Part shown: positions 7,545 through 46,131 of the stretch, piece by piece
How positions within the stretch are numbered: the first letter of the stretch is position 1
Layout: each line of letters opens with the position of its first letter
IMG/VR virus record: IMGVR_UViG_3300032053_000045
Location: 1-64,000 of that record
Origin: a virus
Length of the DNA stretch: 64,000 nucleotides
Strand: one strand, 5' to 3'
Notes under the pieces: model-generated
Database searches by the model: none
The model's input: only the letters and a program-made list of their open reading frames with translations
What the model was told of the DNA's origin: nothing
Translations under genes and position numbers: made by a program

Positions 7545-7618
7545 CGCAGGGTGGAGCAGTTTGGCAGCTCGTTGGGCTCATAACTCAAAGGTCCCTGGTT
7601 CAAATCCAGGCCCTGCTA
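7545..7618 (+). tRNA. tRNA-Met(CAT), initiator-like
   Basis: Acceptor CGCAGGG/CCCTGCT with C1:U72 mismatch, anticodon loop CT-CAT-AA, T-arm CCTGG-TTCAAAT-CCAGG; CCA not encoded. Confidence 0.93.
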
Positions 7619-35860: not shown

Positions 35861-36270
35861 TGCAAAGAACTGAAGAGTTAAATTTATTTTTAAGATCGAT
35901 TTCAAAATCAGATGTTAGGACGAGACAAAGAAGAGTTAATCGATTTGAAAAAGGGACATTAAAAATGATTGTATTAAGCATTGATGGCGGAATCTTGGCC
36001 GTGACTGGCAGACTAAGGAATGAGCCGGATAGAAAAATTCAAACATTGATATTTAATAAATCGATTAATCCTTATGGAATAAAATCTTGGTCTTTAAGAA
36101 AAGCAAAAGATTGGGTGCATTTGTACAAAAAATCCATAATAAAATCTATTAACCCAGAAAAAATTTCAAATAGAATAATTATTATGAAAGCAATTAAGGC
36201 AGCTGAACATCAAATGATAAACAAATTACCGAAAATTATAAATAAGGTATTACAAGGAGATGAGCAATGA
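35857..36270 (+). CDS. hypothetical head-region protein
   Basis: IQTLIFNK..WS..KAKDWV..H motif; lies between portal and protease. Confidence 0.55.
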   Translation: MMQRTEELNLFLRSISKSDVRTRQRRVNRFEKGTLKMIVLSIDGGILAVTGRLRNEPDRKIQTLIFNKSINPYGIKSWSLRKAKDWVHLYKKSIIKSINPEKISNRIIIMKAIKAAEHQMINKLPKIINKVLQGDEQ

Positions 36271-38039
36271 GTAAATTATTGGGAGGGAATTTTTCTCTTG
36301 ATATTTCCAAGGCCGTGGAAGGTAAAATCAATCCGGCAAAGAAAAAACGGATAATCGAGGGATACATGACAACTCCCGCTCTCGATCTAGAAAATGAAGT
36401 AACAGACAGCAAGGCGTATCCTGAAGCTGCCGAAGAATTGAACCAACATGTTCATGATGGATCTCCAATTCCTATTTTTATTGAGCATCGTAGGAAAGAA
36501 ATTTCTTTACCTGTTGGGAGAATTATTTCTGCTGAAGCAAAGCCTAATGGGATATGGTTTAAGGGAGAGATCGCAGAAGGTAAAATAGCAGATCCTGTTT
36601 GGGAGCTGATTGAGCAAGGGATGTTAAACGGATGCTCAATGGGTGGAGATGCCTTAGAAACAGTTCCTGATTTTGATCCTGAGAAAAACAAAGAATTCAA
36701 AAGAATAAAAAAGATGACTATTAGAGAATTATCATTGACAGGGCTACCTGTTAATCCTCAAGCAGTTTTCTCTATGGCAAAATCTTTAAATATCGAAGAA
36801 AGGAAGGTGAGATCAAAATTGGAAAAATTAGAAAAAGCAATAGAAACAGAATATGATATTAGTACTATAGAGAAAGCTGTTAATGATGGAAAAATTGATG
36901 AAGAGAGTATGAAGAGAATAAAATCAGCTCTCGATGGATTAGAACAACTTATTGGAATAAAAACTGATGAAACTCCAACGAAAGAAGAGGCTCCCAAAGA
37001 AACAGAAGTAGCAGAAAAACCCACTGAAGATAAAGGTAAGTTAGATCAAATTTTAGAGAAAATAAATATGCTTGTTGAAAATAAGGAAAAACCTGCAGAA
37101 AAACCCGAAGAAACTATAGAAGAACCAAAAACTACAGAAGCCCCCAAAGAAGAAAAAGAAGAAGGAGGTGAAATGAATATGGCAAAAATGAAAGATATTG
37201 ATGAAAAAGAAGAAGATAAAAAAGAAGCAGAAACACTGAAATGTAAATCTTGTTCGATGGTCTTCGAAAAAAGTGAAGATGAAGATTACGAGGTTAAATT
37301 CTGTCCTAAATGTGGTAAACCATTCGGCGACGAAGAAGTTGAAGGCGAAGTTGATGCTGAAGATAGTGAAGATGGAGAGGAAATCGTTGACGAGGAATCA
37401 GTTGACGAAGAGCCGATGGATGAAGAGGAAGACATTGACGATGAAGAATTAGATCTCGATGAAGAAGGCGAAGATGACGAGGATGAATTCGAAGATGACG
37501 AGGAAGATGATGTTGAAATGGTAAAGTTTGTTGATGATGAGGATGAAGATGACGAGTTTGAGGAAGATGAGGAAGATGAGGATGATGAGTCCTTTGAAAA
37601 GAATTTAGAAATTCTTCAGTCAAAACCGTCAAAAGATTCCGGTCAGTCAATTTCAACATTCAAGGGAGATTATATCAAGCCATCAACTGGTAAACGGACT
37701 AATCCTGCTGACACCACAGAGCACGAACATCCGAAGCCATTCAAGCCGTTAGAGACTGGAGTTTCAGGTGAACAGTTTGCTAACTATGGTAAGGATCGTA
37801 CAGAGAAATCTATGAGTTCGTCCAGAATTAAGAGGATGGTTGAGAAAGCTGTTAAGGATTCCGTAGAAGAGACAATTAAATCTTCTATTGAAAAAGCAAT
37901 TGACGCTTCTAATGTTGAAAGAAAAGTTCTTGGTCCGATTGAGAAATCTCAAAATGCGACTCCTGATACTATCAGTGATGACAGAGTTTTCGCTCGTGCC
38001 CTTTCCCAAGGTCTGTCTGATCCGATCCCGATGGAGTAG
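36267..38039 (+). CDS. prohead protease (HK97-type) fused to acidic scaffold-like domain
   Basis: IEGYMT..DLENE, IFIEH..PVG, GCSMGG, ELSLTGLPVNP; C-terminal zinc ribbon and D/E tract. Confidence 0.88.
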   Translation: MSKLLGGNFSLDISKAVEGKINPAKKKRIIEGYMTTPALDLENEVTDSKAYPEAAEELNQHVHDGSPIPIFIEHRRKEISLPVGRIISAEAKPNGIWFKGEIAEGKIADPVWELIEQGMLNGCSMGGDALETVPDFDPEKNKEFKRIKKMTIRELSLTGLPVNPQAVFSMAKSLNIEERKVRSKLEKLEKAIETEYDISTIEKAVNDGKIDEESMKRIKSALDGLEQLIGIKTDETPTKEEAPKETEVAEKPTEDKGKLDQILEKINMLVENKEKPAEKPEETIEEPKTTEAPKEEKEEGGEMNMAKMKDIDEKEEDKKEAETLKCKSCSMVFEKSEDEDYEVKFCPKCGKPFGDEEVEGEVDAEDSEDGEEIVDEESVDEEPMDEEEDIDDEELDLDEEGEDDEDEFEDDEEDDVEMVKFVDDEDEDDEFEEDEEDEDDESFEKNLEILQSKPSKDSGQSISTFKGDYIKPSTGKRTNPADTTEHEHPKPFKPLETGVSGEQFANYGKDRTEKSMSSSRIKRMVEKAVKDSVEETIKSSIEKAIDASNVERKVLGPIEKSQNATPDTISDDRVFARALSQGLSDPIPME

Positions 38040-38351: not shown

Positions 38352-41300
38352 ATGCGTACATCATTCAATTTTGGGTGATGTTAAACTCTACTATATCGGA
38401 GGAAGGTTTAAAAGAAACTAATAAATCAATTCCGAGGAAAGACTGGAATACTCCAGAATCCGTAGAGACTATACGTAGAGCTTCCTGAAAAAGGAAGAAG
38501 ATATAGTCCAAACTGAAGATATAAATAAAACTTCAGAGGAATTCAGAAATGAAATTCCCGCCTTGAAAAAAGGTTAATAAGTAATAGAATGTGAAAAAGC
38601 TTAAATCTGTGTTTTGGAGCTTTTAAAATTTGGCTATATGCTGGGACCTCCAATACTGGACAATCAGCAGGAAAGACTCTTAAAAAAGAGAATCCTCAGA
38701 GACTATACGCCAAACATCTCGTACGCATTCCAGGAAAAAGATGATGATATAGTCCGTTCTATATGGTGACATATAGAGGCAAGTAGAAATATTTGCCCGC
38801 CTTGTAAAAGGTAATAAAAGTAACACGAAGTGAATACAGTTGCCGGAACGGGTGGAGATACCTTGATCCCGCGTTTGGCGGATTTTTAATTTGGTCCGCT
38901 TTAAATTGAGCTAAATCGGTGAACATCTTTTTCTAAAGACAATACCGAGGAAAGACTGGAATACTCCAGAATCCGTAACGACTATACGCTCAACATTGGA
39001 ATAAAATCCATAAAGATATAGTCTAAACTCCAACTATAGATAAAATTGGAGAGGAATTCAGAAATGAAATTCCCGCCTAAAAAACTTTAGGTTATTAAAG
39101 TAATAGAATGCAAATCATTCCGTTTTTAAAATAAGCGGAATTCAAATTGGGCTAATTCGGTAAAAACCTGAAAGAGAAAATTTTTCAGGCAATACCGAGC
39201 TAAATTCAAGAACAATCTTGATAAAAGTGTAGAGACTATAAACCCGATGCTAATTCCTTTAATTAGTAATGATATAGTCCAAACTGCAAATATAAAAATT
39301 AAATTGCAGAGATAAGAAGAAATTCTTATCCGCCTCTTAAACAAGAGGTTATAAAAGTAATAAAATGTTATCCGGCAGAAATCGTGTTTAAATATGCGAC
39401 TTTGAGTAGAGATGCTCATCGAAAATCTCGTAAATTGCTGGAAAATCTTAACAGTCTACTAAACTACAAAGTAATTTCTTTAAAATGAAATAAACTTGAA
39501 TGTTTAAAAATTAGTAGAATTAGACAATCAGCAGGGAAGCTCGAAAGAGAACCTTCAGAGACTAGAGACGAGACATCTGAAAAGATGATGATATAGTCCG
39601 AACTTCAAAGAGATTTGAAGAGTTCTGTTTTAAAAAAACAGAGAGTAACACAATTGATATGCGCCAATTCCTCCCAACATTCGTATTAACTTGCGACTTT
39701 GAGTAGAAATACTCATTGAAAAATTCCGTAAATTGCTGGAAACCCCGAGTATATTTTGGTACAGAAAAATTAAATATTCTGTAAAAATCCAAAATTGCGG
39801 ACAATCAGCAGCCAAGCTTCCTCTAAGGAAGAAGGTTCAGAGACTAAAGACGGAACTTCTGAAAAGAAGATGATATAGTCCGATCTTTATAGCGATATAA
39901 AGAGTTGATAGAGAGAAAATATTTTTCTATCAGAATAACAGAAATGAATGCCGACCCAAGTTTATAGATTTCCTAAGTTAAGTGCTGGTTGATTTTATTG
40001 CAGCCACTTCAAGAAGAAATTCTTGTCGAATAAGCAACTATATCGGGGGAACTCTTCAAGAGAATAAATCTGAAGACAATCCCGACGGAAGAGAATACCA
40101 GAAATGGTGGAAAAAACTCCCGCTAGAGACTACACGTTGCAACCTTGAATAAAGGTTATGATATAGTCCAAACTGCATAGTGATATGCAGAGGAATTCAG
40201 AAATGAAATTCCCGCCTAAAAAACTTTAGGTTATTAAGTAATAGATTGAGCAATGTTTATTATGTTGGTGAGGCGATTGCGGCTCCAGAATCGGCAATGA
40301 GTACCGGAACCGTGGAATTGACTGCGAAGAAATTAATGGTTGATTTTAATGCAGCCACTTTTGAGAGAAATCTCAATTGAAAAATCTTACTATATCGGTG
40401 AAACTCTCGAAAACTATGATATAATATAACTATGGGGCTAAGAAGAGCTTTATAACCTCTTCGAAGGTGCCTAAATCACCAAGCCCCTTCTTTACCTATT
40501 TAGGAGGTAATAAATGAATAAATTTAGAAAATGTTTGTATTGTGATAATTTAGTTAAAGTAAATAAACCTCATATTGCCAGAATTCTTTGTCAAGAATGT
40601 AAAGATAAGAAAAACATTCCTATTTTTAAAGATATTCAGGGGATAGAAAATGTTAATTATGTGATTTGCAAAATTTGCGGATATAAAAGTACGCAATTAT
40701 TTTGGCATATTAAAAAACATCACAAATTAACAGGTAAACAATATAGATCTTTATTCCCTGGAGAAAAATTAATGATTTCTTGGAATTTAGGATTAACATC
40801 TGAAACAGACATTAGAGTTAAGAAAAATGCTGAAAATTCTGGTAAGGTTAGAAAAGGAAAGAAAAATCAAAAATCCAGTGAAACTAAGAAGAAAAAATTT
40901 AAATTGGGTTTATTAAAAATTTGGAATAAAGGCTTAACAATAGAAGATCAAAGAGTTAAAAATTATACAAAAAATCGTGAAAAGACAATAAAAGAAAAAT
41001 TTGCTTCTGGTGAATTAGTTGTTTGGAATAAAGGACAGACAAAATATTCACACCCAAGTATAGCTAAGTCAATAATAACAAGACGAGAAACGATGGCAAA
41101 AATTTAGCTTTAGATCCTCATTATTATGATCTTGACTTTGGTGAACCAAGTAATTTAGATTTAGCTCTATATGCCGAGTTAGAAAAACATAACATAAAAT
41201 ATATTCCACAATATTATTTCGTTTGTTCTGAATTAGAAACAATAATAGATGCGTTTATAGAACCAAATATTTGTGTTTATGTAGATGGTACATATTGGCA

Positions 41301-44300
41301 TAGTCCTGGTCATATGAGAAGTAAAGATAGTTATCAAAAACTTATTCTAAGAAATAAAGGATTCATTCCTTTAAGATTTTCTGAAGAATATTTTTATTCA
41401 AACAAACATTTAGTTATAGAAGAAATTAAAAAAGTTATTCGAGACAATACCGAGGCAACCTGAGAAATCAGAGAGTCCGTAGAGACTACACGTAAGAATC
41501 CTATCTAATCACATAGGAAAAAGATATAGTCCGAACTCTATAGTGATATAGAGAGATAAATAGAAATATTTACCCGCCTCGAAAGAGGTTATAAAGTAAC
41601 AAATTTGTGCCCTCGCCATCAGTGCCGAGTTACAAGAGGATAAATTGTTGTCCTCTAAAAATTGTATTAAAACGGTGAAACGCTTCGAGAATATATGTTA
41701 TAATTAATAGGGGCTAAGATTGACCTCATGAATCAATCGACGGTTGCCCTAACAACCAAGCCCTTCTTTACCTTAGGGGGTATGAAATGAAGAATGATAA
41801 GATTCAATGTCCAATTTGTAAAAATTGGTATCATAATTTGACAGGAAAACATTTGCAAAAACATGGTTATAATTCAGTAAAACAGTTTTTATTAGATTAT
41901 CCTAATTCTAAAACAATATCTAATAGAGTATCAAAAATTCTTTCAAAACATTGGCATAAGAAATTAAAACCAATGCGTAAAGAAATAGGTAGAAAATCTA
42001 GTGAGACTAAAAAAGAAAGATTTAAACTAGGTTTATTGGAACCTTGGAATAAAGGATTAACTAAAGAGACTGATAAAAGAATTAAGAAAAATGGTGAAAG
42101 TGTTTCTAATACATGGAAAAGAAAATCAAAAAGGGAAAAGAAAAAATATGGAAAAGTCGTCAGCAAAAGATTAAAAGGTAGAAGTTGGAAAGATCTTTGG
42201 GGTGAAGAACAAGCAGAAATAAGAAGTGAAAAACAAAGTAAGAGGTTGAAAGGAAAAGGTAGTCCTTTTTATAAAGATGGAAGATGTTCAGATAAATTAA
42301 ATTATATTAATGATTACGGACCAAATTGGCCAAAGATAAGAAAGGCTATTTATAAAAGAGATAATTGGACTTGTCAAGAATGTTTGGCAAAAGATAGAAA
42401 AGTACTTTGTCATCACATAATAGATTATTTTGATTTTCCGGTAGAAAAAAGAAAAGAATTTGCTCACCATGGATTGAATTTAATTACATTATGTTTTTCT
42501 TGTCATTCAAAATTAATTAACAAAAAGATTCTTAAAGTCAATACCGTGAGGTATTTAGAGATTACAAAATCTAAGTATCTTGTAACGACTACGTATTCAA
42601 AGGCAACTTTGAGTGCTACGTACAACATGCTAAAAAGCATGATGATATAGTCTAAACTGTAGACATAATTCATAAACTGCAGAGATAAGAAGAAATTCTT
42701 ATTCGCTTATTTCAGAATTAGGTTTTCTAAATAAGTTATTAAAGTAATAAATTGGCAATTTTGCCGATTGTGCCAGTTGTCAGAGATGACATGGCCAAAG
42801 CGTTCGCGCTGGCAGAAGAAGATGTGTTCGAATTGATGAGCACCTTTTGAGAGAAATCTCAATCGAAAATTCTACTATATCGGTGGAACTCTTTGTAATC
42901 TATTTGAAATCTATGATATAATATAACTATGGGGCTAAGTTTGAATTAATTACTCAAACGAGGTTGCCTGAACAACCAAGCCCCGTTACTTTTCAGGAGG
43001 TAAATATATGGTTTTTCCAAAAGGAAAAAAGTTTCCAAAATCTGGTATTGAAAAATTAAAAAAGACTTTCAAAAAACGTAAAGAATTAAAATTACACATA
43101 GGAACGAAGAAGATCAATGAAAAAAAGATTAATTATTGTTTAAATTGTGACAAAGAAATAATCGTTTCTGTAAATGGGTGTAATAAGGATAAGAAATTTT
43201 GTTCTTCAAGCTGCGCTTCTTCTTACAATAATAAAATTAGATGGAGCGATAATGAAAAGAAACAAAATTGGATAAGAAAAATCAATGAGACAAGAAAAAA
43301 TAATAATAGTTATCATACTGGAAGTTTAAAAGCAATTCAAACCAGAAGACAAAATAATAATTTATATAGTTGGAACACAGGTTTAACAAAAGAAACTGAT
43401 GAACGTTTGAAAAAAGCTAGTGAAAAACAAAGTAAAGATAGGAAAGGAGTTTCTTGGGTAGATCGCTTTGGAGATGAAACAGCAAAAGATATGAAAAGAC
43501 AAGCTAGACAGAGATTGACAGGTATGATTATCGACGGAAAATTAGAATTAAATTATGGTTTAGAATGGATAAAAATCCGAAAAGAAATTTTAATTAGAGA
43601 TAATTACACTTGTTGTGTTTGTAATGTTGAAAAAGCTGAAAAAGTTCATCACATTGTTCCATATAGAATTATTAAAAAACATGAGAAATTTTTATTAGTA
43701 TCAGTTTGTAAAAAATGTCATTTAAAAATAGAACCAAAGAATATACCGACGGAAGAGATTACCTTTGAATCGTATATAAATTATTATATAAATAAAGGTG
43801 GAAAACTCCCGCTAGAGACTACACGTAGAACCCCTATAACGGGTGATGATATAGTCCGAACCTCAGATATAAAATAAAACTGAGGAGTTATCTAGAAATA
43901 AGATAACCTCTTAAGAAATTAAGAAGTAACAAAATTGTTATCAATGGTAACACGGCTGGTGCTTTTGCGGCTAACGACCCTAAGTTTGCATGGATATGAA
44001 AAATATTTAGTGCCTTACAAGAGAAATCTTGTATAGAAAATTCAGAGAATTGCTGGAAGATCCTAAGAGCTTGTTTAACTACAAAGTAGATTCTGTAAAA
44101 TGAATCAAGCTTGATAGTTTGAAAATAAACAAGATTGGATAATCAGCAGGGGAGCCCGAAAGGGAACCTTCAGAGACTATGTACTGAACTTCCTGAAAAA
44201 GGAAGATGATATAGTCCGTACTTTAGGGAAACTTAAAGAGTTCTGTTTAATAAAACAGAGAATAACACAATAGTCAATGGTATTCGGATTTCAGGAACTG

Positions 44301-46131
44301 GTACAGATGTCAATGCTAGCTCGGCTGCACTTACGCTCGCGAACATCTCGACTTCAATTCAAAATTTGGGCGTCTACGGACGCGACAAATCAGAATTGCT
44401 GCTCGTCGTTTCGTTGAGAGAAGAAAGCAGACTGCGTCAGCTACTTGGTATCAATCTGGCGGTCAACGCACTTGGCCTTACCGGTACGGCACTTCCGGGA
44501 GAGATCGGTAAAGTCTGGGGGGTTCCTGTAGTTGCTACAAACCTCTTACCTACGACTCTTGCCCCGGGAACCTTGTCTGTGGCCCTGATGATCAACAGAA
44601 ATTGTGCAGTTATTGGTGGAAAAATTCGCCAATGTAAAAACTCGTAAATTCGGTGGAACTCCTGCAAAGGACAATACCGAGCCAAGCTTAATAGAGAAAC
44701 TCTCGAAATAGAATTTTTTTATTATGAAGGTGTAACGACTATACACGAGTCTTCTTTAGAAAAAAGAATGAAGATATAGTCTGAGCTGAATAGTAATATT
44801 CAGATGTAGACAGAAATGATCTACATTTGGAAGATAAATTCTTCCAAGATAACAGTCTGGATAGAAGGATCTTCACAATCAAGTCCTCAAATACATCTGG
44901 GGTCTTATAAAAAACTTCGAGAATTGCTGGAAGCCTTTAGAGCTTGTTTAACTACAAAGTAACTTCTCAAATGAAGTAAACTTGAATGTTCTAAAAATAA
45001 ACAAGATTAGGTAATCAGCAGCCGAGCCCGTGAGGGAAGGTTCAGAGACTATGCACGAAGCATTTGTTAAAAATAGATGATGATATAGTCCGATCCTTGT
45101 TGAAAAACAAGCAAATTTTATTATGGGTCTAAGTTGAGAATAATTAACTCCATGTATAAAATTTTGGAATTAAAAATATGCAGATGAGATTTTGATTAGG
45201 TCCGATCAGTTAAAACATAATAGCTGCTTCATAAAGAAATTTATGAATGGGACTTGGCTAATTCGGTGAAACTCCAGAAGTGGAAAACACCGAGCTAAAT
45301 TGAGAAGAGAGTTTCTCTCTCATAAATGTGTAACGACTATATACCAGGCATCCTAAAAGGATGAAGAGATAGTCTGATCTACAAATATAACCAAATGAAA
45401 TTGTAGAGTTGGTAATTCTTATACTTCGTCAATATAAGACAATCCAACACTCAGAAATGAGTTAACAAAATGTACTTGTCGTCGCGTCCGAAAGGATTAT
45501 GAAAAATTAGTCCGTTTAGATAGAAATATCTAAATAAAATAATCTCGAAAATTGCTGGAAGGTCATGAGAGTCAAACAAGCTACAAAATGAATCCTTAAA
45601 TGGATTGAGTTCGAATGCTTTAAAAATTGTTTGAATTTGATAATCAGCAGCCGAGCCCGAAAGGGAAGGTTCAACGACTACGCCCGAGACATCTCTAAAT
45701 GAGATGATGATATAGTCTGATCTTATGGGAAACCTTAAGAGTTGACAGGAAATGTTTCTTGTCAGAATAACACAAATGTGGTTTCGCTATGCAATACGCC
45801 GACGCCTCGGTTCGGATTATTAATATAAATAGTTCCATTTAAGAGTAATCTTAAATTGCAAACTCAGAGAATTGCTGGAAGGTCCTTAGAGCTTGTTTAA
45901 CTACAACATAATCTATGTTATAATAGATAAGTGTGAATGTTTGAAAATAAACAAGATTGGATAATCAGCAGCCGAGCCCGAAAGGGAAGGTTCAGAGACT
46001 ATGTACTGAGTTTCCTCGAGAGAGGAAAATGATATAGTCCGATCTCATAGGAAACTATGAGAGTTGTAGAGAGAATATTTAAAAATATTTCATCTGCAGA
46101 ATAACACAAATGTATTAATATCGCACCTTAG
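38352..46131 (+). CDS. major capsid protein (HK97 fold), 305 aa, split into 17 exons by 16 group I introns
   Basis: AAGGAGG RBS. Exons: 38352-38365, 38592-38602, 38831-38883, 39111-39123, 39368-39385, 39657-39684, 39947-39989, 40249-40340, 41608-41641, 42755-42827, 43938-43991, 44274-44617, 44860-44887, 45181-45210, 45473-45497, 45779-45817, 46113-46131. They join to 918 nt with no internal stop. Motifs: KAL.T..GTGG.TLIP, YVGE...PES, VELTAKKL, IS.EL.ED, EED.FING, G.VWGVPVV, IGDRR, SERIGF. Confidence 0.93.
38366..38591 (+). ncRNA. group I intron 1 of capsid gene (226 nt)
   Basis: P1 ACATCATT/GGTGATGT, P3 CTCTAC/GTAGAG, P7 GACTA/TAGTC, terminal G. Confidence 0.88.
38603..38830 (+). ncRNA. group I intron 2 (228 nt)
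   Basis: P1 AAAAGCTT/GAGCTTTT, P4 TGCTG/CAGCA, P7 GACTA/TAGTC, terminal G. Confidence 0.88.
38884..39110 (+). ncRNA. group I intron 3 (227 nt)
   Basis: P1 GCGGAT/GTCCGC, P4 TCGG/CCGA, P7, terminal G. Confidence 0.9.
39124..39367 (+). ncRNA. group I intron 4 (244 nt)
   Basis: P1 ATTCCGT/GCGGAAT, P4, P7, terminal G. Confidence 0.9.
39386..39656 (+). ncRNA. group I intron 5 (271 nt)
   Basis: P1 TCGT/GCGA, AATTGCTGGAA..AATCAGCAGG, P7, terminal G. Confidence 0.9.
39685..39946 (+). ncRNA. group I intron 6 (262 nt)
   Basis: P1 TCGT/GCGA, AATTGCTGGAA..AATCAGCAG, P7, terminal G. Confidence 0.9.
39990..40248 (+). ncRNA. group I intron 7 (259 nt)
   Basis: P1 TGGT/GCCA, P3 GCAAC/GTTGC, P7, terminal G. 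Confidence 0.9.
40417..40504 (+). promoter_or_regulatory. extended -10 promoter plus endonuclease-leader RNA motif
   Basis: TGaTATAAT then GGGGCT-AA-GAAGAG/CTCTTC-GAA-GGTG[CCTAAAT]CACC-AAGCCCC; loop pairs with ATTTAGG at the SD. Confidence 0.72.
40514..41463 (+). pseudogene. intron-encoded Vsr/DUF559-like homing endonuclease, interrupted by a -1 frameshift near 41098-41102
   Basis: Frame 0 (zinc finger, WNKGLT repeats) stops at 41107. The -1 frame continues ..IPQYYF..IDAFIEPNICVYVDGTYWH..KD..GFIPLRFSE to TGA at 41463. Confidence 0.75.
41696..41778 (+). promoter_or_regulatory. extended -10 promoter plus endonuclease-leader RNA motif
   Basis: TGtTATAAT then GGGGCT-AA-GATTGA/TCAATC-GAC-GGTTG[CCCTAA]CAACC-AAGCCC; loop pairs with TTAGGG at the SD. 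Confidence 0.72.
41787..42650 (+). CDS. intron-encoded HNH homing endonuclease
   Basis: N-terminal CPIC..H..KH finger; RDNWTCQEC..HHI..NLITLCFSCH; ORF reads into the intron core. Confidence 0.88.
   Translation: MKNDKIQCPICKNWYHNLTGKHLQKHGYNSVKQFLLDYPNSKTISNRVSKILSKHWHKKLKPMRKEIGRKSSETKKERFKLGLLEPWNKGLTKETDKRIKKNGESVSNTWKRKSKREKKKYGKVVSKRLKGRSWKDLWGEEQAEIRSEKQSKRLKGKGSPFYKDGRCSDKLNYINDYGPNWPKIRKAIYKRDNWTCQECLAKDRKVLCHHIIDYFDFPVEKRKEFAHHGLNLITLCFSCHSKLINKKILKVNTVRYLEITKSKYLVTTTYSKATLSATYNMLKSMMI
42914..42997 (+). promoter_or_regulatory. extended -10 promoter plus endonuclease-leader RNA motif
   Basis: TGaTATAAT then GGGGCT-AA-GTTTGA/TCAAAC-GA-GGTTG[CCTGAA]CAACC-AAGCCCC; loop pairs with TTCAGG at the SD. 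Confidence 0.72.
43008..43877 (+). CDS. intron-encoded HNH homing endonuclease
   Basis: RDNYTCCVC..VHHIVP..LVSVCKKCH; C-terminal residues are encoded by the intron core. Confidence 0.88.
   Translation: MVFPKGKKFPKSGIEKLKKTFKKRKELKLHIGTKKINEKKINYCLNCDKEIIVSVNGCNKDKKFCSSSCASSYNNKIRWSDNEKKQNWIRKINETRKNNNSYHTGSLKAIQTRRQNNNLYSWNTGLTKETDERLKKASEKQSKDRKGVSWVDRFGDETAKDMKRQARQRLTGMIIDGKLELNYGLEWIKIRKEILIRDNYTCCVCNVEKAEKVHHIVPYRIIKKHEKFLLVSVCKKCHLKIEPKNIPTEEITFESYINYYINKGGKLPLETTRRTPITGDDIVRTSDIK
43992..44273 (+). ncRNA. group I intron 11 (282 nt)
   Basis: P1 GCAT/GTGC, AATTGCTGGAA..AATCAGCAGG, P7, terminal G. Confidence 0.9.
44618..44859 (+). ncRNA. group I intron 12 (242 nt)
   Basis: P1 ATTGGT/GCCAAT, P3 ACTCGT/ACGAGT, P7, terminal G. 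Confidence 0.9.
44888..45180 (+). ncRNA. group I intron 13 (293 nt)
   Basis: P1 CCT/GGG, AATTGCTGGAA..AATCAGCAG, P7, terminal G. Confidence 0.87.
45211..45472 (+). ncRNA. group I intron 14 (262 nt)
   Basis: P1 CAGT/GCTG, P4 TCGG/CCGA, P7 GACTA/GAGATAGTC, terminal G. Confidence 0.88.
45498..45778 (+). ncRNA. group I intron 15 (281 nt)
   Basis: P1 GGAT/GTCC, AATTGCTGGAA..AATCAGCAG, P7, terminal G. Confidence 0.9.
45818..46112 (+). ncRNA. group I intron 16 (295 nt)
   Basis: P1 GGAT/GTTCC, P3 AACTCAG/CTGAGTT, P7, terminal G. Confidence 0.88.

Follow-up and report, generated by a model that had tools for sequence, protein, structure and literature searches.

The major capsid protein gene of this phage is interrupted by 16 group I introns. 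We consider it likely (probability about 0.6) that the capsid gene of the whole phage clade acts as a sink for introns of mixed origins, that the ORF-less introns would travel as one block with linked endonuclease genes and that the introns would recombine with each other inside the gene. The analyzed stretch of DNA (hereafter, the window) comprises the first 64,000 nt of IMG/VR record IMGVR_UViG_3300032053_000045, whose total length is 73,817 nt (estimated ~59% complete). The capsid gene and a gene upstream of it lie at:

36267-38039: prohead protease gene, upstream of the capsid gene
38352..46131, + strand: major capsid protein gene, HK97 fold family (PF05065 in homologues), 17 exons and 16 group I introns

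The exon/intron map was drawn using the intron-free homologues P0002/P0003 as guides. Of the 7780 nt of the capsid gene, 918 are coding and 88% is intron, a proportion that defeats gene callers; the database entry for the phage's own capsid protein is just a 77-aa fragment. Starting with the ATG at 38352, the spliced reading frame of 918 nt encodes 305 aa followed by a stop codon, and over residues 1-303 the product shares 83% identity with the capsid proteins of L001 and L002, whose genes are uninterrupted. None of the 32 splice boundaries is out of register, and the spliced capsid aligns with its intron-free homologues without any indel. Exons between introns are short (11-345 nt). The last base before the intron is T in every exon, and all 16 introns end in G. 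A search of INPHARED (phage GenBank records) returned nothing similar at either the DNA or the protein level.

By their sequences, the 16 introns belong to group I and are predicted to be self-splicing. The Rfam covariance model RF00028, which represents the catalytic core (P3-P9), detects ten of them above the gathering threshold and 13 at E<1e-6. The 3' half of the eighth intron (I8) matches the same model at 35 bits, while I9 and I10, although interrupted by ORFs, can be aligned to the other introns and to relatives at the same sites. P1 is present in every case: it forms 4-8 bp with the exon, and the splice-site pair is U.G. The P4-P7 core presumably resembles that of small IC3-type introns such as Azoarcus. 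All group I matches in the 73,817-nt record fall inside the capsid gene.

A previous interpretation made from the DNA letters only (the sequence-only reading) had placed the array between 38366 and 46112, and these limits hold. It had also split the introns in two by their P4; this is correct, and the Rfam alignment places the difference in the P4 helix, which reads UCGGUG/UACCGA in type A and UGCUGG/UCAGCA in type B. The introns, all on the + strand, are as follows (sites are given in CDS coordinates):

38366..38591, +: I1, 226 nt, type A, no ORF, site nt 14; P1 pairs with 8 exon nt; nearest relative I3
38603..38830, +: I2, 228 nt, type B core with a type A-like 3' tail, no ORF, site nt 25
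38884..39110, +: I3, 227 nt, type A, no ORF, site nt 78; nearest relative I1
39124..39367, +: I4, 244 nt, type A, no ORF, site nt 91; close relative not found
39386..39656, +: I5, 271 nt, type B, no ORF, site nt 109; exon TCGT, guide GCGA
39685..39946, +: I6, 262 nt, type B, no ORF, site nt 137; guide and exon 4-mer as in I5
39990..40248, +: I7, 259 nt, type A, no ORF, site nt 180; mosaic
40341..41607, +: I8, 1267 nt, type A, site nt 272; P1 identical to that of I7 except for 1 nt
41642..42754, +: I9, 1113 nt, type A, site nt 306; same-site relatives L015a and L284d
42828..43937, +: I10, 1110 nt, type A, site nt 379; same-site relative L015b
43992..44273, +: I11, 282 nt, type B, no ORF, site nt 433; nearest relatives I16 and I5
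44618..44859, +: I12, 242 nt, type A, no ORF, site nt 777
44888..45180, +: I13, 293 nt, type B, no ORF, site nt 805; P5 extension in common with I11 and I16
45211..45472, +: I14, 262 nt, type A, no ORF, site nt 835; close relative not found
45498..45778, +: I15, 281 nt, type B, no ORF, site nt 860; same-site relative L016c
45818..46112, +: I16, 295 nt, type B, no ORF, site nt 899; follows exon GGAT, as does I15

Kinship and mosaic structure of the introns

The sequence-only reading had taken the introns for paralogous families. As far as the two core types are concerned, this does not hold. Each P4 variant occurs in more than 114 stretches in IMG/VR, and the core types are widespread subtypes of viral contigs rather than two in-gene families. 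Type A introns resemble each other within the gene exactly as much as they resemble unrelated introns (45% in both comparisons), the pair I1-I3 being the sole outlier. For type B, the median similarity within the gene is 66% compared with 65% to the capsid introns of related phages.

The idea of families finds support in two smaller sets, I1-I3 and I5/I11/I13/I16. Six introns (I1, I3, I5, I11, I13 and I16) are closer to another member of the gene than to any intron elsewhere. I8, I9, I10 and I12 are not, I15 shows a tie, and the others have only weak matches. Kinship within the gene embraces about half of the introns: I1-I3, to which the tail of I7 may be added, and I5/I11/I13/I16. I1 and I3 are 78-80% identical overall and 97% identical in the P4'-P6 block; I11 and I16 are 80% identical over 245 nt, and I5 and I11 reach 80% identity in their 3' tails. 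The trees, built on 130-195 columns, have little resolution, and we used only their well-supported nodes, which join I9 to its same-site relatives and I7 to the lineage of I10; otherwise, kinship rests on pairwise identities. Since even the closest pairs in the gene are only ~80% identical, any copying must be old. The likeness may alternatively stem from shared ancestry elsewhere followed by import, few relatives having been sampled.

Every motif listed in the sequence-only reading is exact and occurs exclusively in the introns named there. I5 and I6 have TGCGACTTTGAGTAGA in common, and TGATTTTA.TGCAGCCACTT begins at the first base of both I7 and I8. A 29-mer is common to I1 and I3, a 28-mer to I1, I3 and I7, whereas AGAGCTTGTTTAACTACA and AAAATAAACAAGATT are common to I11, I13 and I16. 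In exact searches of IMG/VR, the 21-mer of the P9 hairpin of I1/I3/I7 had no locus, and hence no related intron, elsewhere; the 17-mer of the P5 extension of I11/I13/I16 was found at seven loci, none with a related intron. The 5' block of I5/I6 had been a candidate for a further private block. We rejected it, as L016c has the same P2 hairpin with another guide and at another site.

Several introns are patchworks. I7 combines an I8-like P1, an I10-like core and an I1/I3-like 3' tail. I5 is like I6 in P1-P2 and like I11 in the remainder, including the 3' tail, while I16 is I11-like up to approximately position 224 and continues with an I15/I6-like 3' tail. The triplet max-chi-square test gave P<=0.0002 for I7, P=0.004 for I16, P=0.006 for I5 and P=0.035 for I11, values that domain-specific constraint can inflate and of which, after correction for 13 tests, only that of I7 is clearly significant. 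In addition, the farther apart two introns lie in the gene, the less similar they are (Mantel rho -0.36 to -0.38, P=0.004 and 0.002). The patchwork together with this decay favors DNA recombination between neighboring introns. Recombination between introns is well supported; the mechanism itself, like the first arrival of a copy at a new site, is something that we infer from these patterns. The sequence-only reading had proposed local spread by guide-directed reverse splicing and/or recombination. The recombination half is supported by the mosaics, the distance decay and the private blocks, and we judge the reverse-splicing half unlikely.

Guides, endonuclease genes and the route to new sites

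The guides match the insertion sites in 16 of 16 introns, just as the sequence-only reading had claimed. However, the match says little about mobility, because any group I intron needs it for splicing, and the closest relatives within the gene have different guides. More informative is the sharing of guides. The exon ends are as previously described (TCGT before I5 and I6, TGGT before I7 and I8), and altogether three adjacent pairs share both guide and exon 4-mer: I5/I6 (GCGA with TCGT), I7/I8 (CAGCCA with TGGT|TG) and I15/I16 (GGAT|TA). At random sites 0.28-0.57 such pairs would be expected (P 0.003-0.016), yet once the observed 4-mers are taken as given, adjacency loses its significance (P=0.10). 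Exon 4-mers are also reused overall: 10 pairs coincide where 2.1-4.0 would be expected (P 0.001-0.016), and of the six GGAT sites in the CDS four contain an intron. Copies of the shared 4-mers that are free of introns lie at CDS positions 566, 569, 574 and 845 (TCGT), 201, 390, 402, 441, 462, 609 and 864 (TGGT) and 449 and 788 (GGAT). The guide-sharing pairs are related mainly in the P1-P2 domain. Within I1/I3/I7 and within I5/I11/I13/I16, both guides and exon 4-mers differ.

It might be argued that this reuse of targets reflects guide-directed reverse splicing, in which excised intron RNA would enter the abundant capsid mRNA at guide matches of 4-6 nt, to be followed by reverse transcription and genomic recombination; later recombination would merely blur the copies. 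Besides the shared targets, this explanation would account for the many introns without an endonuclease and for the location of all introns in a single highly expressed late gene, and for rDNA introns it has been accepted as a hypothesis (PMC3984707, PMC1299323). We nevertheless regard it as unlikely. The introns that are closest to each other differ in guide and exon 4-mer, sharing of 4-mers is not associated with core type (P=0.24) and the P2 hairpin of I5/I6 recurs in L016c next to a different guide. Selection on conversion tracts would yield the same pattern, and the full pathway has never been demonstrated by experiment (review PMC3984707). The reverse transcriptase model PF00078 has no match anywhere in the 73,817-nt record, ~59% complete as it is; for the window, this agrees with the sequence-only reading. 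It is equally doubtful that the small group I introns of this clade transpose via RNA to new sites of the capsid gene, with the excised ribozyme reverse-splicing wherever the abundant late capsid mRNA offers a 4-nt match to the guide, preferentially nearby, and the product then returning to DNA.

Under the preferred reading, in which introns collect in the capsid gene and recombine there, neighboring copies would trade sequence at the DNA level, through recombination or gene conversion. P1 must pair with its own exon, so that a tract carrying the guide along would survive conversion only between introns whose exons share the terminal 4-mer. Such a constraint would explain why I5/I6, I7/I8 and I15/I16 share guides and the closest overall relatives do not. 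A few introns, namely I1/I3 and I5/I11/I13/I16, would be true copies.

As previously noted, 13 of the 16 introns lack an endonuclease; I8, I9 and I10 carry ORFs:

40514..41460, + strand: I8 endonuclease gene in two frames, with the N-terminal part at 40514-41107 and the Vsr/DUF559-like nuclease part at 41068-41460
41787..42650, + strand: I9 HNH homing endonuclease ORF, 287 aa
43008..43877, + strand: I10 HNH-type endonuclease ORF, 289 aa

The I9 ORF matches PF01844 at 25 bits (cut-off 21.4), and several HNH families of PHROG are hit by the ORFs of both I9 and I10 (E 1e-9 to 1e-13). The I8 gene, probably frameshifted, encodes a nuclease of a different class (Vsr/DUF559-like) from the HNH of I9 and I10. 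Two intact HNH genes and one probably frameshifted endonuclease gene lie in the middle of the array. The 13 ORF-less introns, lying within ~2 kb of the endonuclease genes, would most plausibly travel with the array as a block by co-conversion. We infer this hitch-hiking with the endonucleases from the arrangement of the array.

Site use in related phages

Four introns (I3, I9, I10 and I15) have same-site counterparts in related phages, and the other 12 of the 16 sites have so far been seen in this phage alone. The site of I3 is occupied in L005/L019 by an ORF-bearing intron. I9 forms a single clade (support 100) with L015a, which has an ORF, and L284d, which does not. I10 is 82% identical to L015b over 206 nt, with a compensating change in exon and guide. 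I15 and L016c both reside at nt 860, and L016c has an ORF in the P1 loop. The same-site relatives of I9, I10 and I15 in other phages form a pattern that the sequence-only reading had itself set against local spread. Two further introns have their nearest relatives outside the window, although at other sites: the nearest core to I8 is that of L009, and the nearest BLAST match of I12 is an L016 intron at site 669 (the core of I12 is at most 60% identical to that of any relative).

The relatives use at least 13 further sites (in CDS coordinates of the window, 51, ~63, 71, 99, 144, 170, 190, 245, 329, ~409, 426, 636 and 669), which brings the number used by the clade in the capsid gene to ~29. Some of these are offset by 7 nt from sites occupied here (78/71, 137/144, 433/426); the excess of such offsets is too weak to interpret. 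Introns are wholly absent from the closest relatives sampled, at 83-85% protein identity, and in G002, a 152-kb relative, the only two group I matches are both in its capsid gene.

These data can also be viewed as evidence that there was no exchange inside the gene at all. The 16 introns would then have been imported singly, each at its own site, from the pool of the clade, either by homing or by exon recombination during co-infection, and their likeness would represent family-level conservation. The same-site counterparts, the outside relatives of I8 and I12 and the lack of any excess similarity within type A (and next to none within type B) all fit this explanation. It does not fit the significant mosaic break points, the decay of similarity along the gene, the nearly identical P4'-P6 block of I1-I3 or the number of sites unique to this phage. 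Blocks of 28 nt and 17 nt, each shared by three introns and absent from other related introns in IMG/VR, are also contrary to it. Overall, we find import one by one improbable, slightly more so than reverse splicing.

Contigs of related phages end inside the capsid gene (L005/L019, L016 and L284) and the L033 contig looks like a jump between two introns, so that the intron-rich capsid gene appears to break metagenome assemblies; yet a contig that joins intron-bearing population variants, with no single genome having all 16 introns, is highly improbable, since the boundaries stay in register through a complete capsid protein, every guide fits its own exon and the introns, at most ~80% alike, are too different for an assembler to collapse.

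In the preferred reading of the capsid gene as a sink, the gene would draw, throughout the clade, on one pool of small group I introns, with 16 of the ~29 sites occupied in this phage. Ordinary homing at the DNA level would have brought I3, I9, I10 and I15 to their sites, or vertical inheritance would have kept them there.

Comparison with known systems

The nearest parallel is orf142 of Staphylococcus phage Twort, a late structural gene in which Landthaler and Shub (1999) reportedly found three group I introns, all of them ORF-less. It is the tail tube gene and shows exon skipping (PMC11878797). Both cases feature clustered small endonuclease-free group I introns, some of them interrelated, in a late structural phage gene. 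However, the capsid gene has 16 introns instead of three, is composed mostly of intron with exons down to 11 nt and includes three introns with endonuclease genes; unlike in Twort, relatives of the phage use many further sites in the same gene.

In fungal mitochondria, cox1 may contain up to ~18 group I introns per gene. It is likewise a single protein-coding gene with very many group I introns and a mosaic of presence and absence among relatives. The difference is that cox1 is organellar and its introns are large and mostly ORF-bearing, whereas here a phage gene is split by minimal ribozymes into micro-exons.

Jug phages (PMC12880540) and crAss-like phages (PMC7886860) have many small (~200 nt), mostly ORF-less group I introns along with HNH and other homing endonucleases, a combination that is also seen in the capsid array. 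Their introns (mean 18.5 per genome) are spread over terL, nrdD, the DNA polymerase gene and others; here all 16 are in one 918-nt CDS, with none elsewhere in the record. This confinement also goes against published surveys, in which phage introns are found mainly in DNA-metabolism genes (PMC11878797).

The td, nrdB and nrdD introns of T4 represent classical endonuclease homing with co-conversion of flanking markers (PMC2988022, PMC3984707). As homing predicts, I9 and I10, both with an HNH endonuclease gene, have relatives at the same sites in other phages. Most introns of the array, however, are endonuclease-free and lie at sites not seen elsewhere, so that their drive would be indirect.

Finally, for group I introns of nuclear rDNA, spread by reverse splicing has been proposed (Bhattacharya et al. 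2005, PMC1299323; review PMC3984707). There, too, related introns occupy different sites of one gene and short matches between guide and target argue for transposition at the RNA level. The target in that case is eukaryotic rRNA and not a phage protein-coding mRNA. Moreover, in the capsid gene the closest relatives have no guides in common, and DNA-level conversion explains the pattern at least equally well. If the RNA route were nonetheless true, this clade would be the first tractable bacterial or phage system for direct tests of group I mobility by reverse splicing, long hypothesized. How group I introns arrive at new sites is an old open question, for which the capsid gene and its relatives make up a compact natural data set: ~29 sites in one 918-nt CDS, copies of graded relatedness, three guide-sharing neighbor pairs, patchwork between neighbors and relatives ranging from intron-free to intron-rich. 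Rather than of how the introns moved, the array is a rare natural record of introns moving and recombining in one gene.

Capsid gene model and its introns

The source record spans 73,817 nt (estimated completeness 59%), and the window covers its first 64 kb. The capsid gene opens with the ATG at 38352; a prohead protease gene (36267-38039, PF04586) lies upstream of it. If left unspliced, the capsid frame reaches a stop after eight codons. The longest open stretch of the gene, used as a query, retrieved uninterrupted capsid proteins of the HK97 type (PF05065), about 306-316 aa long. We aligned two uninterrupted homologues onto the DNA and applied group I rules (exon end U, intron end G), which resulted in a model of 17 exons and 16 introns (I1-I16).

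Exons of the capsid gene (+ strand; homologue alignment and group I rules), each with the intron that follows, its site (nt of the spliced CDS) and its P4 type (A, UCGGUG/UACCGA; B, UGCUGG/UCAGCA)
38352-38365, +, exon 1; I1, site 14, A
38592-38602, +, exon 2; I2, site 25, B
38831-38883, +, exon 3; I3, site 78, A
39111-39123, +, exon 4; I4, site 91, A
39368-39385, +, exon 5; I5, site 109, B
39657-39684, +, exon 6; I6, site 137, B
39947-39989, +, exon 7; I7, site 180, A
40249-40340, +, exon 8; I8, site 272, A
41608-41641, +, exon 9; I9, site 306, A
42755-42827, +, exon 10; I10, site 379, A
43938-43991, +, exon 11; I11, site 433, B
44274-44617, +, exon 12; I12, site 777, A
44860-44887, +, exon 13; I13, site 805, B
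45181-45210, +, exon 14; I14, site 835, A
45473-45497, +, exon 15; I15, site 860, B
45779-45817, +, exon 16; I16, site 899, B
46113-46131, +, exon 17

The joined exons form a 918-nt frame (305 aa and a stop), whose product is 83% identical over residues 1-303 to the proteins of two intron-free relatives (L001 and L002), without gaps at the junctions. Intron sequence accounts for 6862 of the 7780 nt (88%). Ten introns score above the gathering threshold of the Rfam group I model and 13 at E<1e-6; the 3' half of I8 reaches 35 bits, and I9 and I10 are interrupted by ORFs, yet can be aligned with the other introns. All 16 are predicted to pair with the exon over 4-8 bp in a P1 helix whose U.G pair falls at the splice site. 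Every group I match in the whole record lies inside the capsid gene. The first two exons are micro-exons of 14 and 11 nt (38352-38602); since the P1 of I2 pairs with 8 nt of the 11-nt exon 2, this exon must be common to neighbouring ribozymes. A tRNA gene is present in the early part of the window (7545-7618; RF00005, 56.6 bits).

Core types and introns of related phages

A sequence-only reading of this DNA had divided the introns into two core types with shared motifs and proposed their spread by reverse splicing and/or recombination. Its observations are accurate: the quoted motifs are exact and confined to the introns named, TCGT precedes I5 and I6, TGGT precedes I7 and I8, and 13 of the 16 introns lack an ORF. 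The two types are real, and the Rfam alignment places their difference in helix P4. They are not in-gene families, both core patterns being widespread in IMG/VR (at least 114 and at least 119 stretches). In the 3' half of the ribozyme, type A introns show the same 45% identity within the gene, to introns of related phages and to unrelated introns; similarity within the gene thus does not exceed general subgroup conservation for type A as a whole, with the sole exception of I1-I3 (78%). For type B it does so narrowly and in few pairs: the median identity is 66% in the gene, 65% to introns of related phages and 38% to other IMG/VR introns of the same core pattern, and only I11-I16 (80%) exceeds the between-phage level. 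The type B introns of the window and of related capsid genes constitute a clade-specific family.

Scans of viral and metagenome contigs yielded about 20 distinct related capsid genes, often truncated within the gene. The closest (L001, L002 and L006; 83-85% protein identity) are intron-free, and more distant ones (55-75%) contain from zero to five or more introns; L284 has five in its first 120 codons, where the contig ends. Across the window and the sampled relatives about 29 sites are used in this one gene. In one relative (G002, 152 kb) the Rfam group I matches are only two, both in the capsid gene; in another (G001, complete, 178 kb) the model found no match, though the capsid gene has two ORF-bearing introns.

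Intron sites in related capsid genes (nt of the window's spliced CDS)
L009: 51, 144, 170
L010, L033: 245
L012, L284: 71, 329
L013, L033: about 409
L013, L016: 669
L015: 306, 379, 636
L016: 426, 860
L023: about 63
L027, L284: 99
L284: 190

Four of the window's sites (those of I3, I9, I10 and I15) are also occupied in other phages. The tree places I9 in one clade, with full support, together with introns of L015 (L015a, HNH ORF) and L284 (L284d, no ORF). I10 and L015b share 82% identity over 206 nt, the exon change from GTGT to GCGT being matched by a guide change from GAGCAC to GAGCGC. I15 and L016c, both at nt 860, are paired in the tree, and in L005/L019 an intron with an ORF sits at the site of I3. 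The trees were built from 130-195 columns. I8 and I12 find their best matches outside the window and at other sites: I8 in an L009 intron (site 51), and I12, by BLAST, in the site-669 intron of L016, although no relative exceeds 60% identity to the I12 core. By the sequence-only reading's own standard, I3, I9, I10, I15, I8 and I12 thus count, fully or in part, against local spread.

Sites 78, 137 and 433 of the window are exactly 7 nt from the relatives' 71, 144 and 426; roughly one such coincidence is expected, and the offsets may be due to chance. In L005/L019, L016 and L284 the contig begins or ends inside the capsid gene, in or beside an intron. The pattern points to metagenome assemblies breaking at repeated intron cores, which would leave intron-rich capsid genes under-sampled. 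In L033:1258-1760 (Ga0208904_1018081), a single intron separates an exon ending in SADWY from the final 11 or so codons (AVVKITNISS and stop), and about 480 nt of capsid coding sequence are absent; the join resembles a crossover between two similar introns at about 409 and about 888, or a jump of the assembler from one to the other.

Kinship, guides and endonuclease ORFs

The best match lies inside the gene for I1, I3, I5, I11, I13 and I16 (bit scores of 141 for I1-I3, 211 for I11-I16, 180 for I5-I11 and 150 for I13-I11; best outside matches 72-140). Identities compared domain by domain are mutually incongruent. I1 and I3 are 97% identical in P4'-P6 and 65% in P7-P8. I11 resembles I16 from P1 to P8 (68-87%) and I5 in its 3' tail (80% versus 44%). 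In I7 the P1 is that of I8 (differing at one of 20 nt), the core belongs to the I10 lineage (98% support) and the 3' tail is shared with I1/I3. I8 combines the P1 of I7 with the P2 of I10, and in I2 a type B core is followed by a tail resembling type A. Maximum chi-square tests on intron triplets, assessed by permutation, gave P<=0.0002 for I7, 0.004 for I16, 0.006 for I5 and 0.035 for I11; given 13 tests, the mosaic signal is beyond dispute only for I7. Introns that lie farther apart in the gene are also less alike (Spearman -0.36 to -0.38; Mantel P 0.004 and 0.002). Searches of IMG/VR detected neither the P5-extension block of I11/I13/I16 nor the P9 hairpin of I1/I3/I7 in related introns beyond this gene. 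Overall identity is only about 80% even in the most similar pairs of the gene, and the exchange events would therefore be old.

Insertion sites do match the guides, as the sequence-only reading had emphasized; by itself this is uninformative, because splicing requires such a match. The reuse of exon 4-mers (GGAT four times, TGGT three, TCGT twice) says more: 10 coincident pairs are observed, where random U sites would give 2.1 (P about 0.001) and G+C-rich sites 4.0 (P=0.016). Three of these are immediate neighbours (I5/I6, I7/I8 and I15/I16; 0.28-0.57 expected, P 0.003-0.016, or 0.10 conditional on the observed 4-mers), each with the guide and nearby intron bases in common. Sharing of 4-mers showed no association with core type (P=0.24). 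Guides differ among the closest overall relatives, both in I1 (GGTGATGT), I3 (GTCCGCT) and I7 (GCCA) and in I5 (GCGA), I11 (GTGC), I13 (GGGGT) and I16 (GTTC). The P2 hairpin common to I5 and I6 recurs in L016c after another guide (GACC) and at another site; guides therefore vary within one intron lineage. Neither the I5 nor the I6 site has TCGT in intron-free relatives; the window's own states at these sites are synonymous or near-synonymous, and co-adaptation of exon and guide fits as well as site choice.

The ORFs of I9 and I10 encode HNH endonucleases. The endonuclease gene of I8 (40514-41460) is in two frames overlapping at 41068-41107; it is probably frameshifted, since a single uninterrupted 341-aa intron ORF of L016 matches both parts, and is either decayed or dependent on a frameshift for expression. 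A conserved leader (containing TATGATATAATATAACTATGGGGCTAAG) lies 5' of the I8 and I10 ORFs, and also ahead of the L016c ORF in a different phage.

Leader copies
40410-40513, before the I8 ORF
41690-41786, variant before the I9 ORF
42900-43007, before the I10 ORF
L016:2731-2800, before the L016c ORF

In L016c (L016:2731-3790), the same-site relative of I15, the endonuclease ORF occupies the P1 loop, with the 5' splice site on one side and the guide on the other, unlike in I8-I10, where it is in the P5 region. These ribozymes have therefore taken up ORF cassettes at different positions.

Mechanism and known systems

The most likely mechanism is DNA recombination or gene conversion between close, partly similar repeats, because kinship of intron bodies is uncoupled from that of guides, neighbours are alike and the mosaic break points are significant. 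Such closely spaced repeats would recombine or convert, while selection would keep each P1 matched to its own exon. A conversion tract that includes the guide would be tolerated only where both exons end alike, which would reproduce the sibling pairs of the sequence-only reading without an RNA-level step. Two intact HNH genes and one presumably decayed endonuclease gene in mid-array could provide breaks or nicks that stimulate repair. During co-infection, endonucleases could carry the whole array, ORF-less introns included, into intron-free genomes, since the exons between introns may be too short for frequent resolution.

Reverse splicing, as the route by which a copy reaches a new site, would fit the three neighbour pairs; however, no reverse transcriptase is at hand in the sequenced part of the genome, its domain being absent from the window, as already noted from sequence, and from the whole 73,817-nt record (59% complete), and no experiment has demonstrated the complete pathway (PMC3984707). 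Illegitimate DNA events could equally be the route.

Among known systems, Twort orf142 has multiple related ORF-less group I introns (three) in one late phage gene. Jug and crAss-like phages also have many small introns per genome, but over many genes (PMC12880540, PMC7886860), whereas those of the window are confined to the capsid gene. In a recent survey phage introns occur mainly in nucleotide- and DNA-metabolism genes (PMC11878797), and in nuclear rDNA related introns at different sites of one gene have been read as reverse splicing (PMC1299323). The present case differs from the known ones in four respects: number and density of introns (16 in 918 coding nt), confinement to the capsid gene, about 29 sites clade-wide and measurable patchwork.
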